Assembly (NCBI GenBank): GCA_048268245.1 | Contig: JBLWVX010000034.1 | Coordinates: 1 to 27,728, forward strand | Length of the DNA: 27,728 nt | From: Arcobacteraceae bacterium | GTDB lineage: Bacteria > Campylobacterota > Campylobacteria > Campylobacterales > Arcobacteraceae | Direction: 5' to 3' | In this document: positions 9,027 through 26,112 of the stretch, piece after piece | Layout of the letters: every line of letters starts with the position of its first letter | Numbering within the stretch: the stretch's first letter is position 1 | Notes under the pieces: generated by a model | Database searches by the model: none | The model's input: only the letters and a program-made list of their open reading frames with translations | What the model was told of the DNA's origin: nothing | Program-made: the position numbers and the translations under genes

Positions 9027-9119
9027 GCGAAATTGTAACAAAATCTCTTTAAAGTTTAAACAAACTAATATAAAAACACAGTAGAATTAATGATTATAAA
9101 ATTTTTGCTGAGGTTATTT

Positions 9120-10538
9120 ATGAAAAAAAAGTATAGATTAGAGTGTGATTTATTAGGTGAAAAAGAGATATCAAATAAGTATTATTATGGAATCCAAACA
9201 TTAAGAGCTAAAGAAAACTTCTCAATATCAGGTGTTCCTTTGTCAAACTTTCCTAAACTTATTATTGCCCTAGCACAAGTTAAAAAAGCTTCTGCCCTAA
9301 CTAATAATGAACTTGGATTACTTGATGATGAAACTTGTGATGCAATTTGTAGTGCTTGTGATGAGATTTTTGCAAAAAAATACCATAAACAGTTTATAGT
9401 TGATGTTATTCAAGGAGGAGCAGGAACTTCTACAAATATGAATGCAAATGAAGTAATAGCAAATATTGCATTAGAGTTAATAGGAAAGAAAAAAGGTGAG
9501 TATGAATTTATTCATCCAAATAATCATGTAAATATGTCTCAATCTACAAATGATGTTTATCCTACAGCTGTTAGACTTGCTCTTTATGAATACCTTTGTA
9601 AACTTCAAAATAAGATGGAAGTTTTAAAAGAGTCATTCTCAACTAAAGCAAAAGAGTTTGAAAATATTATTAAAATGGGTCGAACTCAACTTCAAGATGC
9701 AGTACCTATGACTTTAGGGCAAGAGTTTAACTCTTTTGCTTTAATGATAGATGATGATATAAAAGTAATTGAAATGGTAAAAGATTTAGTTGCACAGATG
9801 AACTTAGGAGGAACTGCAATTGGTACAGGAATAAATACAGATTCAAAATATGCAGCTTTGGTAAAAGAAAAACTTGAAAAAGTTACAAATAGACCATTTG
9901 TTACAGCTTGTGATTTAGTAAAAGCAACACAAGATACTTCTACTTTTGTTCATGTATCGGGAGTTTTAAAATCAATTGCTACAAAAATTTCTAAAATTTG
10001 TAATGATTTAAGATTATTAAGCTCAGGTCCTAGAACAGGAATAAATGAAATAAATCTACCAAAAATGCAGCCAGGAAGTTCAATTATGCCTGGAAAAGTA
10101 AATCCAGTAATTCCTGAAGTTGTAAATCAAGTAGCTTTCCAAGTAATTGGTTATGATACAACTATTTCTCTTGCTAGTGAAGGAGGGCAATTACAACTTA
10201 ATGTATTTGAGCCAATAATAGCCTATAACCTTTTTCAATCAGTAAATATGATGTGTAATGCCTTTGAGACCTTGGCATTTAAATGCGTGGATGGAATTAC
10301 AGCAAATGAAGATGTATGTAAAGACCAAGTTTTAAATTCAATTGGTTTAGTAACAGCTTTAAACCCTTATATTGGCTATCACAATGCAACAGCAGTTGCA
10401 AAAGAAGCATTAAATACAAATAGAAGTGTATATGATATAGTTTTGGAGAAAAAATTATTATCAAAAGAGCAGTTAGATGAGTATTTGAAACCAGAAAATA
10501 TGACTCATCCCTCATTTTCAGGTGAATGTAAACTTTGA
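9120..10538 (+). CDS. aspA: Aspartate ammonia-lyase
   Basis: [68 protein letters not shown] precedes ATG 9120. Confidence 0.95.
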   Translation: MKKKYRLECDLLGEKEISNKYYYGIQTLRAKENFSISGVPLSNFPKLIIALAQVKKASALTNNELGLLDDETCDAICSACDEIFAKKYHKQFIVDVIQGGAGTSTNMNANEVIANIALELIGKKKGEYEFIHPNNHVNMSQSTNDVYPTAVRLALYEYLCKLQNKMEVLKESFSTKAKEFENIIKMGRTQLQDAVPMTLGQEFNSFALMIDDDIKVIEMVKDLVAQMNLGGTAIGTGINTDSKYAALVKEKLEKVTNRPFVTACDLVKATQDTSTFVHVSGVLKSIATKISKICNDLRLLSSGPRTGINEINLPKMQPGSSIMPGKVNPVIPEVVNQVAFQVIGYDTTISLASEGGQLQLNVFEPIIAYNLFQSVNMMCNAFETLAFKCVDGITANEDVCKDQVLNSIGLVTALNPYIGYHNATAVAKEALNTNRSVYDIVLEKKLLSKEQLDEYLKPENMTHPSFSGECKL

Positions 10539-21869: not shown

Positions 21870-21990
21870 TTAAAATTAAAAAAATATGAAAATAATTTTT
21901 TTAATATAGAAATTTTATTATTTCTTAAGAAATCACATATTAAACAAAAAAGTTGTAATATTCCTTCAAAAAATTAGTATTTCAACTGCT

Positions 21991-22693
21991 ATGTCTTTTT
22001 TTGTTGCTTCCTTTATTGGAATTACTGGATTATTTGGCTATCACTTTTTTTACTTTTTAGCTATGAAAAATGCACCTGCAGTAGAAGCAAATCTTTTAAA
22101 CTATTTATGACCTTTGCTAATTGTAGTTTTTTCTGCATTATTACCAAATGAAAAACTTAAGTGGTATCATATTTTAGGGACATTACTTGGTTTAGCAGGA
22201 GCTTTTCTTTTACTTTCAAAAGATGGGAGTTTTAATTTTGAAGTTCAGTATATGTGGGGATATGTGTTTGCTTTAATTGCAGCATTAACATGGTCTTCAT
22301 ACTCTGTTATTTCAAGAACTCTATCTCATATACCAACGCTGTAATCGGTTTTTGTATAGCAACAGTTCTTTTTTCAACTCTGTGTCATTTAATTTTTGAA
22401 GTAACTGTTATTCTTTCATTTTTAGAGCTTTTAGGTGCTTTAATGTTAGGCTTAGGACCAATAGGAGGAGCTTTTTATCTTTGGGATTATGGTGTTAAGA
22501 ATGCTGATATCAAACTACTTGGTTCAATTTCATATTTTACACCTTTATTATCTATTTTACTATTAGTATTTTTAGGTTATGCAAATTTTACTTTAGGGAT
22601 AGTTTTAGCATGTTTTTTATTGTTTTAGGCTCTTTTGAAAGTTCAGCACAATATCTAAAGTTGATAAAAAACTTATTATTTAATAGAAAATAA
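21991..22693 (+). pseudogene. Degraded EamA/DMT (YddG-like) transporter
   Basis: GLFGYHFFYFLAMKNAPAVEANLLNYL*PLLIV with in-frame TGA at 22108-22110 where the family has Trp. Frameshifts near 22336 and 22618, missing N-terminus, original stop likely TAA 22691-22693. Confidence 0.88.
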
Positions 22694-22706: not shown

Positions 22707-22961
22707 TTATTTATCTAATCTCATTTCATCTAAAGCTTCGATAATTTCAATAGCTTCATCTTCTTCTATATCATTGTTATCTAAATCTTCAACAAGTTTA
22801 TCAAAGAATTTTTTCATTTCTTTTAATTCTTCAAACTCTTCCTTATCATCACTCGTTGCTTTCCATGACTGAGTAATATTTGCAAGTTCTAGTAAACTTT
22901 CATCAAGTTCAGGAATAAACTCTTCTTTAAGTATTTTTTCTAATTTTTCAATATTTGACAT
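22707..22961 (-). CDS. Small acidic helical hypothetical protein
   Basis: 84-aa ORF, AGGA SD, upstream TGCTATAAT, native-looking codon usage. Confidence 0.8.
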   Translation of the reverse strand: MSNIEKLEKILKEEFIPELDESLLELANITQSWKATSDDKEEFEELKEMKKFFDKLVEDLDNNDIEEDEAIEIIEALDEMRLDK

Positions 22962-23028
22962 GATATATCCTAATTTTTTTGAGATTATAGCAAAAATAGC
23001 TTTATTTCTAAAGAAGTTGTCATAAGTA

Positions 23029-24375
23029 TTATTCCTTAATATCTAATTTATTTTTCAATATTTTAATATCGCTTGTACTTGCTATAATTTTTCTATTTTT
23101 AATTGCTTCATCATATAAATTTATTAGTTCTATAATATCTTTTTCAAATAAGATATTTTTTTCCTTTGCATTACTTACAGTTTGTACTATTTTATTTATA
23201 AGTAATTTGGATTTTATATTAGATACTCGTTCTATTAAAAAAAATGACTGTGCATTAGTTGGTTCTTTAATAAGCTCATTCCAAAAATAATTCATTGCTT
23301 CAGTAATCCCAAATACACTTTTTTCAAATCTTACAGCTGAGAGATAAACTTCTAACTGATCATTTTTAGAAATTATTCTATTAAACCATATTGCTAACAT
23401 TATTTCTATAATTTTTCTTCTATAAGTTTTATTTAAGTCTTGAATAAATAAAGTTCTTACAATTTGTTGTGTAATTGTTGAACCTCCTGCCTTTGATGTA
23501 CCATTAAGTATGCTTTTTAAACCTCTTGCTAATCCTTTGAAGCTTACCCCTATATGATTTTTAAATTCTTTATCTTCAATAAAAATCAATATGGTTTTTA
23601 AGTTATTTAAATTTATATTTTGACGATTTGTTTCATATCTTGCTAGTTTTGCCCTATATATAACGTACTCAAAATTATTGACTAAATTTAAATTTATTAT
23701 TTTAGAAATATTTTTTGTAAAAATATAAAGAGGTTTTTCATGTATATCAAGTAAAGCCATTCTATAAATATACATATAGAATATAAAAAGTATAAGAAAC
23801 ATTATAATTGTAAAGTAATTTATAAAAGAGTTATCTATTGGTTTTAGAGTTATTATTAAAATAACAATTACTATACTTGATATGATAGATAAAATATAAA
23901 ATGGATAAGCTACATATGTAGACCATCCAGGAAATAGTTTTACTGATAAAGGCTGATCTGCTCCTTCAATACGCCATTTAGGTAGTATTAATTGAATAGT
24001 TCCATATGTTATTCCTAGCATTCTTCTTAATATTATAACTTTCCTAGTAGCAAATAATATAGATTTTTGTCGGTCTGCAAAATATTTTAATGTAATACTA
24101 GTGAAAAACATTATTAGTAAAATAATAAAAGTAATTACAAATTCAGTTGATAAGGTATTTTTAAATAAATTTGATATTTTTTCATTATAACTTACTATAA
24201 GGGATCCAACTGCTGTACTAAATATTAAGGTTATATTTGAAGCATTAATAAAGATACGTTCTTCCGATTCAAGTAATTTAGATGAAACTTTGTACTCTTC
24301 TAAAGCAATATCTCGATCGTTAAATGTATAAGTAGGAAAATGTTGTTTCCATTCACTATTTAAATCTTTTTCTAT
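23029..24375 (-). CDS. 4-TM membrane domain fused to a GT51 (peptidoglycan transglycosylase-like) domain; 448 aa if started at ATA 24375
   Basis: GT51 motifs IEDKEFKNHIG, GGSTITQQ, RRKIIE, KNDQLEVYL. The frame is open from 24405, and AAAGGA SD at 24388-24383 lies 7 nt before ATA 24375. Confidence 0.8.
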   Translation of the reverse strand: MEKDLNSEWKQHFPTYTFNDRDIALEEYKVSSKLLESEERIFINASNITLIFSTAVGSLIVSYNEKISNLFKNTLSTEFVITFIILLIMFFTSITLKYFADRQKSILFATRKVIILRRMLGITYGTIQLILPKWRIEGADQPLSVKLFPGWSTYVAYPFYILSIISSIVIVILIITLKPIDNSFINYFTIIMFLILFIFYMYIYRMALLDIHEKPLYIFTKNISKIINLNLVNNFEYVIYRAKLARYETNRQNINLNNLKTILIFIEDKEFKNHIGVSFKGLARGLKSILNGTSKAGGSTITQQIVRTLFIQDLNKTYRRKIIEIMLAIWFNRIISKNDQLEVYLSAVRFEKSVFGITEAMNYFWNELIKEPTNAQSFFLIERVSNIKSKLLINKIVQTVSNAKEKNILFEKDIIELINLYDEAIKNRKIIASTSDIKILKNKLDIKE

Positions 24376-24580
24376 AGTGTAATCCTTTATGTTTAAATTT
24401 ATAATTTATTAATTATATATTAAATAACTTAAGAGTTCTATTTTTATTTATTGTGAAAAATATTGCTATTGATAACAGCTTAAAAAAATATATTATATGA
24501 ATTAAGAGTTATTTAAATCTCTATTATATATAATGATAATTAATATCATAAAAGGAAAATAGGATGAAACTCTTATAATA

Positions 24581-24730
24581 ATGTTAATATGTATCTTAGT
24601 TGTTGGTATAAGTTCATTAGTTCTTGTAGTAAAATTGGATAAATTTTTAAATGTTCAGAACTTATATCTTAATAGAAATGAAAATAAAAATAAATCTTTT
24701 AAAAAGGATAGTTTATGCAATATAGAATAG
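24581..24730 (+). CDS. Possible small single-TM protein (49 aa), possibly with a frameshifted start
   Basis: [49 protein letters not shown]. Hydrophobic N-terminus, overlaps the fumC start by 16 nt. Confidence 0.3.
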
Positions 24731-26112
24731 AAAAAGACACGATGGGTGAAATGCAAGTACCAAATGATAAGTATTGGGGTGCTCAAACTCAAAGAAGCGT
24801 AGAAAACTTTCCAATTGGTGAAGAAAAAATGCCAAAAGAAATAATTGAGGGTTTTGCATATCTTAAAAAAGCTTGTGCATTGGTAAACAATAGTCTTGAC
24901 AGATTAGATAAAGAAAAAACAGATGCTATTTCTCAAGCTTGTGATGAAGTAATTGATGGTAGGCTAGGTGGAAACTTTCCTTTAGTTGTTTGGCAAACAG
25001 GTTCAGGAACACAATCAAATATGAATATAAATGAAGTTGTAGCAAATAGAGCTAGTGAAATTTTAGGATGTGATTTTAGAGTAGATAAAAAAGTTCATCC
25101 AAATGATGATGTAAATAAAGGTCAAAGCTCAAATGATACATATCCTACAGCTATGAGAATTGCTTTTGTTTTGGATTTACAAAAAAGATTGATCCCTGCC
25201 ATAAACAAATTAAAACTTACATTTGAAAATAAAGTAAAAGAGTTTGAAGATATTGTAAAAATAGGAAGAACTCATTTACAAGATGCTACACCACTTACTT
25301 TAGGGCAAGAAATATCAGCTTATGTTGATATGCTTGATAAAGCAATAATGCAAATTGATGATGCTATGAAGTATATAGTAGAACTTGCTATTGGAGGTAC
25401 TGCTGTTGGAACTGGACTTAACTCTCATCCTGACTTCTCACCAATGGTATCAGAAGTTTTAAACAATCTTACAAATACAAAATATAAGTTTAAATCCCAT
25501 CCAAATAAATTTCATGCCCTAACAGCTCATGATGGTGAAGTTGTATTAAGTGGAGTTTTAAACGCTCTTGCCTCAAATTTAATGAAAATAGCAAATGATA
25601 TTAGATGGCTTTCATCAGGTCCTAGATGTGGAATAGGTGAAATAAGTATTCCTGAAAATGAGCCAGGAAGTTCAATTATGCCTGGAAAAGTAAATCCAAC
25701 ACAAAGTGAAGCAATGACAATGGTTGCTGTTCAAGTTATGGGAAATCATACAACAGTAAGTGTTTCAGCATCTCAAGGTAACTTTGAATTAAATGTATTT
25801 AAACCAGTTATTGCTTTAAATATTTTGCAATCAATTAGACTATTAAGTGATACAATGCTTGCTTTTAATGATAAGTGTGCAGTTGGTATTGAAGCAAATA
25901 AGTTTAATATTGAAAAATATTTAAATGAGTCATTGATGTTAGTTACAGCTTTAAATCCATATATAGGTTATGAAAAAGCAGCACTAATAGCAAAAACTGC
26001 TCATAAAAATGGAACTTCGTTAAAAGAAGAAGCTATGAATTTAGGTATTTTAACTTATGCCCAGTTTGATAAGTATGTAAAACCTTATGAGATGATAAAA
26101 GCGAAAGTGTAA
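24715..26112 (+). CDS. fumC: Class II fumarate hydratase
   Basis: [62 protein letters not shown]. Confidence 0.96.

Follow-up and report, generated by a model that had tools for sequence, protein, structure and literature searches.

The stretch of DNA analysed here, ‘the window’, comprises positions 1 to 27,728 of contig JBLWVX010000034.1 from an Arcobacteraceae bacterium of the phylum Campylobacterota (assembly GCA_048268245.1). Near its right-hand end lies a gene for a protein of 448 amino acids (aa), in which four transmembrane (TM) segments are followed by a peptidoglycan glycosyltransferase domain of family GT51 (Table 1). The gene is intact, under selection, mobile and stand-alone. It combines a complete GT51 domain with a conserved module of four helices, it and its closest relatives have weak start codons, and many of its relatives reside in surroundings rich in defence genes.

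Reading frame, start codon and mobility

Under translation table 11, the first ATG, GTG or TTG in frame lies at 24111, inside TM2, and would yield a protein of 360 aa. Homologues argue for a longer form. The best 120 in the protein database score at least 470 bits each, are mostly 446–482 aa long and cover 94–100% of the 448-aa query; homologues of ~452 aa cover the long form end to end, and those of 446–468 aa cover 98–100% of it. Their N-termini (M-I-E-E-D...W(K/R)QHFPTY) match the I-E-K-D-L-N-S-E-W-K-Q-H-F-P-T-Y of the window. The orthologue in Arcobacter sp. YIC-310 (L001) is identical at 409 of 448 residues, and the ratio of non-synonymous to synonymous substitution rates (dN/dS) between the two genes is 0.19 overall (dS 0.22) and 0.19 in each of the two modules described below. 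In the 88 codons that precede the first ATG it is 0.15, against 0.20 in the remainder, so purifying selection acts on the 5' part as it does on the rest. Judged by these comparisons, the 448-aa long form is the real protein.

A point absent from the original prediction, which was made by a model from the letters of the window alone, is that this long form has no canonical start codon. An AAAGGA element lies 7 nt upstream of the ATA codon at 24375, and AAAGGA followed by ATA is kept in both the window genome and YIC-310. We compared the codon at the position of the initiating methionine across 18 homologues. None of the six in the window's clade has a canonical start: the codon is ATT in L001, L017, L026 and L053, ATC in L018 and ACT in the window, with ATA next in each. 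The other 12 homologues have ATG (seven) or TTG (five). These six members (window 24373–24378, L001, L017, L018, L026 and L053) thus form a clade of Campylobacterota with ATT, ATC or ACT before ATA, behind a good Shine–Dalgarno sequence, and as a result gene callers shorten its proteins to 336–428 aa. Table 11 admits ATA as an initiator. Initiation at AUU and AUA is poor, and initiation factor IF3 discriminates against such starts, as in infC and pcnB. As far as the sequence can tell, initiation in the window genome must take place at ATA, and the weak start throughout the clade suggests selection for a low level of the protein. A scan for promoters and terminators found 12 promoter-like sites, where 19.2 were expected, and no terminator; in DNA as AT-rich as this, such a scan is uninformative.

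The gene had been described as a lone one, probably acquired horizontally, and both statements have gained substance. It occupies a single-gene insertion of 1,479 bp missing from two congeners, G055 and G057, in which the 84-aa open reading frame (ORF) to the left of the insertion directly adjoins fumC. G055 misses window positions 23003–24481, and G057 a slightly larger stretch. The insertion contains only the GT51 gene and a leader of ~100 bp. It is bounded by an imperfect direct repeat of 15 bp, and its flanks have no long repeats, inverted or direct; a single copy of the 15-bp repeat occurs at the empty site of L010 and matches the two copies in the window at 13/15 and 12/15 positions. The insertion has a GC content of 0.224, against 0.275 for the whole window, and the gene itself 0.230, against a mean of 0.285 (standard deviation 0.032) for the 20 other window ORFs. 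CGA and CGT, two of the three codons singled out earlier as rarer in the neighbouring genes, together make up 6 of the 449 codons of the gene and 6 of the ~8,000 in those 20 ORFs; the third, TCG, is too rare to judge (1 versus 6).

The distribution, which the original prediction proposed to survey, is patchy. The gene is present in 2/184 genomes of its taxonomic family, and its N-terminal module in 7/401 genomes and 6/64 genera sampled from the phylum (G000 included). Named carriers elsewhere include Halomonas, Aeromonas, Shewanella, Vibrio, Salinivibrio, Photobacterium, Marinomonas, Maricurvus, Geomonas, Pelobacter and Sulfuricurvum, with 48–59% identity to the window protein: ~48–54% for the copies of Gammaproteobacteria and of Geomonas (Desulfuromonadota), against 59% for Sulfuricurvum of the same phylum. 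Taken with the insertion, the foreign arginine codons and the low GC content, this distribution makes horizontal acquisition of the gene well supported. A core wall gene would be expected to be near-universal within a lineage and to lie in conserved synteny; here we find sporadic presence, empty sites in G055 and G057 and no flanks shared among relatives. Another contig of the window genome encodes a canonical, class-A-type GT51 protein (212 bits, in an open frame of 664 aa), which makes the window's copy supernumerary. The earlier view that this is not a normal wall polymerase agrees with all of these observations.

A GT51 domain behind four membrane helices

By profile, motifs and fold, the C-terminal part of the protein is a complete member of GT51, and it appears catalytically competent. 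Pfam PF00912 (Transgly) matches residues 257–386 (103.3 bits, cut-off 27; E 1.3e-29; model positions 24–153 of 178), and a profile scan of the genome places the same family at 23218–23607 with 105.7 bits. The motifs that we take to be the catalytic ones of GT51 are all present: motif 1, EDxxFxxHxG, with the first glutamate, reads EDKEFKNHIG (267–276); GGSTITQQ is unaltered (297–304); and motif 3, RKxxE, with the second glutamate, is found within RRKIIE (319–324). In a family alignment of 36 sequences, to which all counts of invariance refer, E267/D268, H274, G276, G297-G298-S299, Q303-Q304, R320-K321 and E324 are invariant in 36/36. The original prediction of a compact domain with both conserved glutamates and no transpeptidase is therefore borne out: the Pfam scan found neither a transpeptidase (PF00905) nor any second domain, and the protein ends at residue 448, 48 residues past the GT51 core. 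The 448-aa sequence aligns motif by motif with penicillin-binding protein (PBP) 1a of A. baumannii, which is also the best sequence match in the PDB (E 5.7e-17), and with the S. aureus monofunctional glycosyltransferase, MGT. A model of the whole protein built with AlphaFold2 (AF2) on the 36-sequence alignment has a mean predicted local distance difference test score (pLDDT) of 79.6 and a predicted template modelling score (pTM) of 0.71. With its C-terminal half, Foldseek retrieves the S. aureus enzyme (3vmt_A; E 1.1e-4, TMt 0.59, 178 columns) and the peptidoglycan glycosyltransferase domain of Aquifex, with 3nb6, 2oqo and 3d3h at TMt 0.69–0.71.

Some relatives appear incomplete. Thirty-two of no more than 245 aa were considered as stand-alone GT51 halves and rejected, being fragments or short calls of the same family. 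G498 (L109:8287-8886) has an open frame of just 200 aa, and P0270 and P0271 are calls of the C-terminal half (236–245 aa) on large contigs of Aeromonas salmonicida and Vreelandella aquamarina. Such truncated or split copies may be pseudogenes or mis-called starts.

The remainder of the protein, residues 1–256, is conserved across the alignment at least as strongly as the GT51 core. Conserved stretches are found at the N-terminus (W9/Q11/H12/P14/Y16; EEYK...LE.EER.F.NASN), in the loop between TM2 and TM3 (KYFADRQ..RK..LRRMLG..LP.WR.EGAD.P..LFPGW) and behind TM4 (R205..LLD.HE; N.EY.IYRA.LA.YE..R). Thirteen positions are invariant in residues 2–45 (Q11, P14, Y16, F18, D22, E27, Y28, E36, E38, E39, F42, N44 and A45), and R205, L208, D210, E213, E236, Y240, R241, L244, E248 and R251 are invariant in the linker to the GT51 domain. 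In the AF2 model, continuous helices span residues 21–71 and 77–119, forming a TM hairpin whose two helices run on into a stalk, with residues 96–119 prolonging the helix of TM2; helices 154–177 and 182–208 form a second hairpin. A separate model of residues 1–245 gives the same two hairpins. Part of the TM2–TM3 loop is modelled with low confidence (pLDDT <50 for residues 132–143; 10-residue blocks over 121–150 average 43–55) despite its near-invariance, which suggests that it may serve as an interaction surface or a regulatory element.

The original prediction likened this four-helix part to the membrane effectors of anti-phage or toxin systems. That likeness finds no support in our searches. 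Pfam holds no recurring family for it (scanned singly, no more than 3 of 28 members match any one family, E 0.13), the protein matches none of the families of PADLOC-DB 2.0 at E up to 1, an N-terminal profile has no match among PDB sequences, the sole match in the ESM Atlas was the family itself, at 0.75, and Foldseek found no known homologue. A comparison with 48,161 chains by VIA-align gave generic helical bundles only; the top one, a designed TM nanopore, has a Z of 9.5, too low to be meaningful for helical proteins. In a search of 1.84 billion representative proteins, the profile of the module recovered 147 clusters (50% identity) with an E of 1e-3 or lower, none longer than 596 aa; of the 27 that were scanned, namely the longest and the most divergent, 26 carry Transgly. 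A shuffled effector module, fused to other domains elsewhere, was considered and rejected on these grounds, and as far as these searches reach the module is specific to the GT51 architecture. Four divergent members, P0199, P0212 and P0214 (587–596 aa) and P0219 (496 aa), have additional hydrophobic sequence inserted between TM3 and TM4 (~130 aa in the first three), which probably adds further TM helices. The number of charge-free segments in these four is 5–7, which does not tell odd from even numbers of TM helices.

All four hydrophobic segments of the original prediction are present, and in the family they are virtually free of charge, with a mean of 0.0 lysine plus arginine (K+R) and at most 0.1 aspartate plus glutamate (D+E) per segment. 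TM2, TM3 and TM4 are strong by family-mean hydropathy; TM1 is weaker (maximum 1.5), and has no charged residue in 36/36 sequences. The count is thus even, and hydropathy reveals no further hydrophobic segment after residue 205. Within 15 residues of the TM ends, the family means for K+R are 1.9 before TM1, 2.9 after TM2, 1.0 before TM3 and 2.2 after TM4, all on the side proposed to be inside, versus 1.2 in the TM1–TM2 loop and 0.9 in the TM3–TM4 loop, proposed to be outside. These sum to 8.1 for the inner and 2.1 for the outer side. The loop after TM2, earlier described as strongly basic, is just that: over 59 residues it averages 9.2 K+R and 3.3 D+E, a net charge of +5.9. Four TM helices and the positive-inside rule together lead to a predicted N-in/C-in topology, in which the N-terminus, the TM2–TM3 loop and the GT51 domain would all be cytoplasmic, as the original prediction had it.

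Table 1. Coordinates of the gene, its domains, the insertion and selected genes near relatives. Positions are those of the window unless a locus is named; AF2, AlphaFold2 model; CDS, coding sequence.
Feature	Position	Strand	Evidence
CDS, 448-aa 4-TM + GT51 protein	23029..24375	-	open frame; stop codon 23029-23031
Shine–Dalgarno AAAGGA (24383-24388) and non-canonical ATA start (24373-24375)	24373..24388	-	sequence; kept in L001
Conserved N-terminal soluble segment, residues 2-45, predicted cytoplasmic; 21-45 = first half of helical stalk	24241..24372	-	invariant residues; AF2 helix 21-71
TM1, residues 46-62	24190..24240	-	uncharged in 36/36; hydropathy maximum 1.5; within AF2 helix 21-71
TM2, residues 77-95	24091..24147	-	hydropathy, AF2, charge counts
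Basic TM2–TM3 loop, residues 96-154, predicted cytoplasmic	23914..24090	-	charge counts; many invariant G, P, W, R
TM3, residues 155-175	23851..23913	-	hydropathy, AF2, charge counts
TM4, residues 186-204	23764..23820	-	hydropathy, AF2, charge counts
Conserved linker, residues 205-256 (R..LLD.HE ... N.EY.IYRA.LA.YE..R)	23608..23763	-	invariant residues; AF2 helices 215-226, 235-251
GT51 peptidoglycan glycosyltransferase domain, residues 257-400	23176..23607	-	Pfam PF00912, motif alignment, Foldseek
Catalytic Glu267	23575-23577	-	GT51 motif 1
Catalytic Glu324	23404-23406	-	GT51 motif 3
C-terminal helical tail, residues 401-448	23032..23175	-	AF2 helices 411-426, 434-443; D413, Y421 invariant
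Single-gene insertion, 1,479 bp, absent from congeners G055, G057	23003..24481	.	blastn vs L010, L011; junction sequences; GC
Left copy, imperfect 15-bp direct repeat ending AGCTT	22988..23002	+	10/15 identical to right copy
Right copy, imperfect 15-bp direct repeat	24467..24481	+	junction comparison
Type IIG restriction-methyltransferase gene near a relative	L105:40-1161		PADLOC PDLC03612, E 1.2e-46
Type IIG restriction-methyltransferase gene near a relative	L107:94-3894		PADLOC PDLC03612, E = 0
Type IIG restriction-methyltransferase gene near a relative	L108:10130-13642		PADLOC PDLC03612, E = 0

Surroundings of the gene and of its relatives

To survey the neighbourhoods of relatives, up to three ORFs on each side of the gene were collected at 29 loci (141 ORFs, called by a simple greedy procedure), and canonical GT51 loci from the same scans served as the control (14 loci, 68 ORFs, leaving out 9 of 23 loci, L077, L080, L085 and L087-L092, that were near-duplicates of one conserved site). 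There is no conserved partner gene: when the 141 flanking ORFs were compared all-versus-all by blastp, the sole links were among near-duplicate sites (L047/48/49) and between one pair of CN-hydrolases. Since no flanking family recurs, the gene stands alone. The flanks of the relatives show a tendency towards defence islands. Matches to PADLOC at E 1e-8 or better occur in 24/141 ORFs and at 16/29 loci, versus 2/68 ORFs and 2/14 loci in the control (Fisher p 0.003 and 0.019, respectively); after likely housekeeping matches had been removed by hand and duplicates merged, the figures were 12/28 versus 1/14 loci (p 0.03). The original prediction had proposed such a survey, and the outcome is mixed: by this rough test the relatives tend towards enrichment, and in the window itself the neighbours are housekeeping genes.

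Many of the genes encountered are linked to conflict or mobile elements. They include an HNH effector, putAbiC and DUF6119 (L018); an AriA/OLD-like ATPase and YoeB (L019); PDC-S31 and an IS110 element (L022); a metallo-beta-lactamase protein beside a NACHT NTPase (L026); DUF2326, equivalent to PDC-M68B (L027); a Gp49/HTH pair (L031); a TIR protein (L033); DUF3800 (L035); PD-Lambda-2 A/B and ParD (L040); an integrase (L041); a Y2 transposase (L045); PDC-S01 (L048/49); RhuM and Bro-N (L056); and DISARM DrmD with two HNH proteins (L064). Toxin–antitoxin pairs also occur among the neighbours (Pfam, PADLOC). In five further genomes of Campylobacterota, a Type IIG restriction–modification enzyme is encoded within 1–3 genes of the GT51 gene in three. 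The copy in L105 is partial, at the start of the contig, and L107 has in addition a split AriA/OLD-like ATPase gene.

One prophage, too, carries a member of the family. In IMG/VR, a full-length copy of 34% identity lies between the genes for an HNH endonuclease and the small terminase subunit (terS) of an HK97-like prophage (L012:7418-11120), accompanied by ORFs of 52 aa and 282 aa of no known function; the position looks like an accessory ‘moron’ cargo slot. Elsewhere, two relatives share the same CN-hydrolase flank (L019:6856-9974 and L030:8455-9903). Between the hydrolase and the GT51 gene, one of the two has a 645-aa AriA-like ATPase and the other a 162-aa ORF, which suggests a recombination hotspot that collects accessory genes.

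In the window, the ORF to the left of the insertion (22707-22961, minus strand) encodes a very acidic protein of 84 aa without a Pfam family, and its DNA is ~90% identical in congeners that lack the GT51 gene. It was considered as a partner or antitoxin and rejected, as it is present in those congeners and has no Pfam match and only insignificant PADLOC matches. Beyond it, the adjoining gene for an EamA/DMT-type transporter (21888-22690, plus strand) is broken: a tblastn search with the YIC-310 orthologue, which is intact and 297 aa long, finds it in three frames (21985-22338, 22332-22613 and 22583-22690), with a poorly matching 5' end. G055 is entirely without the EamA gene. Broken here and absent there, the gene marks the region from the acyl-CoA synthetase gene to fumC as a variable, decaying spot. 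On the other side of the insertion, just upstream of fumC and overlapping its start, lies a 49-aa ORF (24581-24730, plus strand) with a strongly hydrophobic N-terminus and DNA that is kept in L001; it could encode a small membrane protein or a leader peptide. The window contains two genes of the Lyase_1/FumaraseC_C family (9090-10538 and 24715-26112); congeners have three paralogues.

Possible functions and relation to known systems

Lipid II is made by MraY and MurG and is then flipped by MurJ, and the sequestration of undecaprenyl phosphate (Und-P) in dead-end intermediates is deleterious. Against this background we infer the topology, substrate, trigger and physiological role of the protein. 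The reading that we prefer, as a tentative but quite possible one, is a self-contained conflict or abortive-infection enzyme that acts on unflipped lipid II. Its first module (residues 1–256) is a four-helix membrane domain, consisting of the TM1/TM2 stalk followed by the basic loop and the second hairpin; its second (residues 257–448) would present the GT51 domain on the inner leaflet, where it would meet lipid II before MurJ flips it. With the domain placed on the cytoplasmic side, unflipped lipid II would be the only substrate available. The geometry would mirror the normal arrangement, with the GT51 domain again placed behind a TM helix. The near-cognate start codon would keep the protein at a very low level, and the N-terminal module would hold the GT51 domain inactive until triggered. 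Lipid II would then be polymerized or sequestered on the wrong face of the membrane, and the trapping of undecaprenyl phosphate (pyrophosphate) would shut down wall synthesis. In its most specific version, the protein would be a single-protein abortive-infection system and the first cytoplasm-facing GT51, in which phage attack causes the four-helix sensor to free the polymerase, glycan forms on the inner leaflet, the Und-P pool is locked, and the cell stops or lyses. Taken as a whole, this version is doubtful.

Were the defence reading true, it would mean a defence that turns a cell-wall synthase against its own cell: a new effector chemistry in bacterial immunity, the sequestration of the wall-precursor carrier, and a host-side mirror of the single-gene lysis proteins by which phages block MraY, MurA or MurJ. 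Should topology and phenotype both be confirmed, a categorically new mechanism of defence would be possible. The topology would matter by itself: GT51 on the inside in a conserved family would contradict the textbook view of wall synthesis, and such proteins would be natural tools with which to manipulate lipid II that is still unflipped. A single gene and about 450 aa make the family compact, 147 clusters at 50% identity make it widespread, and it is easily tested; the ATT, ATC and ATA starts across the clade are a further small puzzle in gene regulation.

Several observations weigh against the preferred reading. Housekeeping genes make up the whole window, among them fumC, Mla genes, the gene for aconitase B and a beta-oxidation operon, and PADLOC matches are found in 0/6 of the nearest ORFs. 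The protein itself matches no PADLOC model. The neighbourhood test is rough, with crude ORF calls, small and non-independent samples, and matches to individual models rather than called systems; RecB/RecD (L019), an ABC ATPase (L025) and a RidA-like protein (L054) among the matches are probably housekeeping, and the loci of some relatives look housekeeping-like (L002, L024, L030, L032 and L055). Full-length copies are absent from the plasmids of PLSDB (E 1e-20) and from GenBank phages, where 27 records match the GT51 core, none with a coverage of 80% or more (at most 35% among the 20 matches listed); these phage matches were considered as family members and rejected, being other GT51 genes. 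With its ACT-ATA start, the gene may be expressed very poorly in the window genome. In the absence of an antitoxin, a polymerase that is constitutively toxic in the cytoplasm needs autoinhibition, which is itself hypothetical. Finally, the cytoplasmic position of the GT51 domain is a prediction, and TM1 is the weakest of the four segments.

This last point leads to the chief rival, an accessory polymerase that works in the periplasm. Should TM1 fail to cross the membrane, the GT51 domain would be periplasmic, as in all GT51 enzymes characterized to our knowledge; insertion of four helices with the N-terminus outside would have the same result. On this view we would be dealing with a mobile, supernumerary enzyme of the MtgA type that has an unusual anchor and might strengthen or mend a sacculus attacked by phage tail lysozymes (superinfection exclusion), by lytic effectors or by antibiotics directed at GT51. 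Catalytic motifs that are fully kept, a TM1 of only moderate hydrophobicity, and carriage by a prophage, which fits superinfection exclusion at the envelope as well, all accord with this. We nevertheless regard it as unlikely. A three-helix topology would export the most basic loop of the protein, and an N-out topology with four helices would export both that loop and the 45-residue N-terminal tail (~6 K+R) without a signal peptide. TM1, moreover, is uncharged throughout the family and appears in the model as an unbroken helix that pairs with TM2, and the want of hydrophobic segments past residue 205 applies here too.

The roles of the two modules might also be reversed, with a cytoplasmic GT51 domain acting as a sensor of lipid II or muropeptide precursors (e.g. 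when a phage lysis protein blocks MraY or MurJ) and the four-helix module oligomerizing to permeabilize the membrane. The N-terminal module and its loop, rather than the GT51 core, are the most conserved parts of the protein; the hairpin-plus-stalk architecture would suit such a role, and so would the nanopore that heads the structural matches, with the low specificity noted for its Z of 9.5. Both catalytic glutamates and all GT51 motifs are retained in 36/36 sequences, however, which suggests catalysis beyond binding, and the module bears no similarity to known pore-forming defence effectors; this reading is distinctly unlikely. Very unlikely, in our view, is that the gene is a passenger in the window genome, hardly expressed or in decay and of no present function. 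The want of an ATG, GTG or TTG before codon 89, the ACT found in the window alone where its clade has ATT or ATC, the adjoining EamA-type gene split into three frames, and the half-length calls of family members in other genomes all point that way; against it stand a frame intact over 448 codons, the low dN/dS, which is lowest in codons 1–88, and a Shine–Dalgarno sequence with an accepted initiator kept in both genomes. Equally improbable is an envelope-variation gene whose product polymerizes or trims some other glycan linked to undecaprenyl pyrophosphate (capsule, O-antigen or a glycoprotein precursor) at the cytoplasmic face. Cytoplasm-facing enzymes normally do act on sugars linked to Und-P or its pyrophosphate before flipping, and a patchy, mobile distribution fits variation of surface glycans as well. 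Yet no genes of glycan biosynthesis are conserved next to the gene, all GT51 motifs of the peptidoglycan type are kept, and we know of no GT51 enzyme with a substrate other than peptidoglycan.

Among known proteins, the closest in domain content are the monofunctional enzymes MtgA and SaMGT (GT51; TIGR02070; PDB 3vmt, 3hzs and 6ftb). Like these, the window protein has a stand-alone GT51 domain without a transpeptidase; EDxxFxxHxG, GGSTITQQ and RKxxE align, and the folds match (E 1.1e-4, TMt about 0.6 over 178 columns). Unlike MtgA, it has four TM helices and an N-terminal module of 256 residues in place of one TM anchor, a catalytic domain predicted to be cytoplasmic rather than extracytoplasmic, a score of 70.4 bits against the equivalog cut-off of 182.65 for TIGR02070, and a gene that is mobile and accessory (2/184 genomes), not core. 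Class A PBPs (PBP1a/1b; PDB 3udf, 2oqo and 3vma) have the same catalytic residues, and PBP1a is the best sequence match in the PDB; they differ in possessing transpeptidase, UB2H and OB domains, and the window protein scores far below the cut-offs of all NCBIfam PBP models (e.g. 93.5 bits against 508.75 for TIGR02074). In general character, the membrane-anchored single-gene proteins of abortive infection and defence (AbiZ-type; CBASS 2TM/Cap15-type) are similar in being encoded by stand-alone genes with a multi-TM N-terminus, in their patchiness, in their residence in defence islands and prophages, and in their weak translation signals; they are dissimilar in that the window protein has no PADLOC match and its N-terminal module no Pfam match.

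In a literature search of full texts we found no precedent for a wall-precursor polymerase as effector chemistry, and no description of a multi-TM or defence-associated GT51 protein. In the portions of PMC12839542 and PMC12191111 that mention ‘transglycosylase’, the enzymes concerned are tRNA-guanine and archaeosine transglycosylases. Compared with these known systems, the family is an undescribed one, in which a known catalytic domain is set in a new and conserved architecture with a predicted inverted location.

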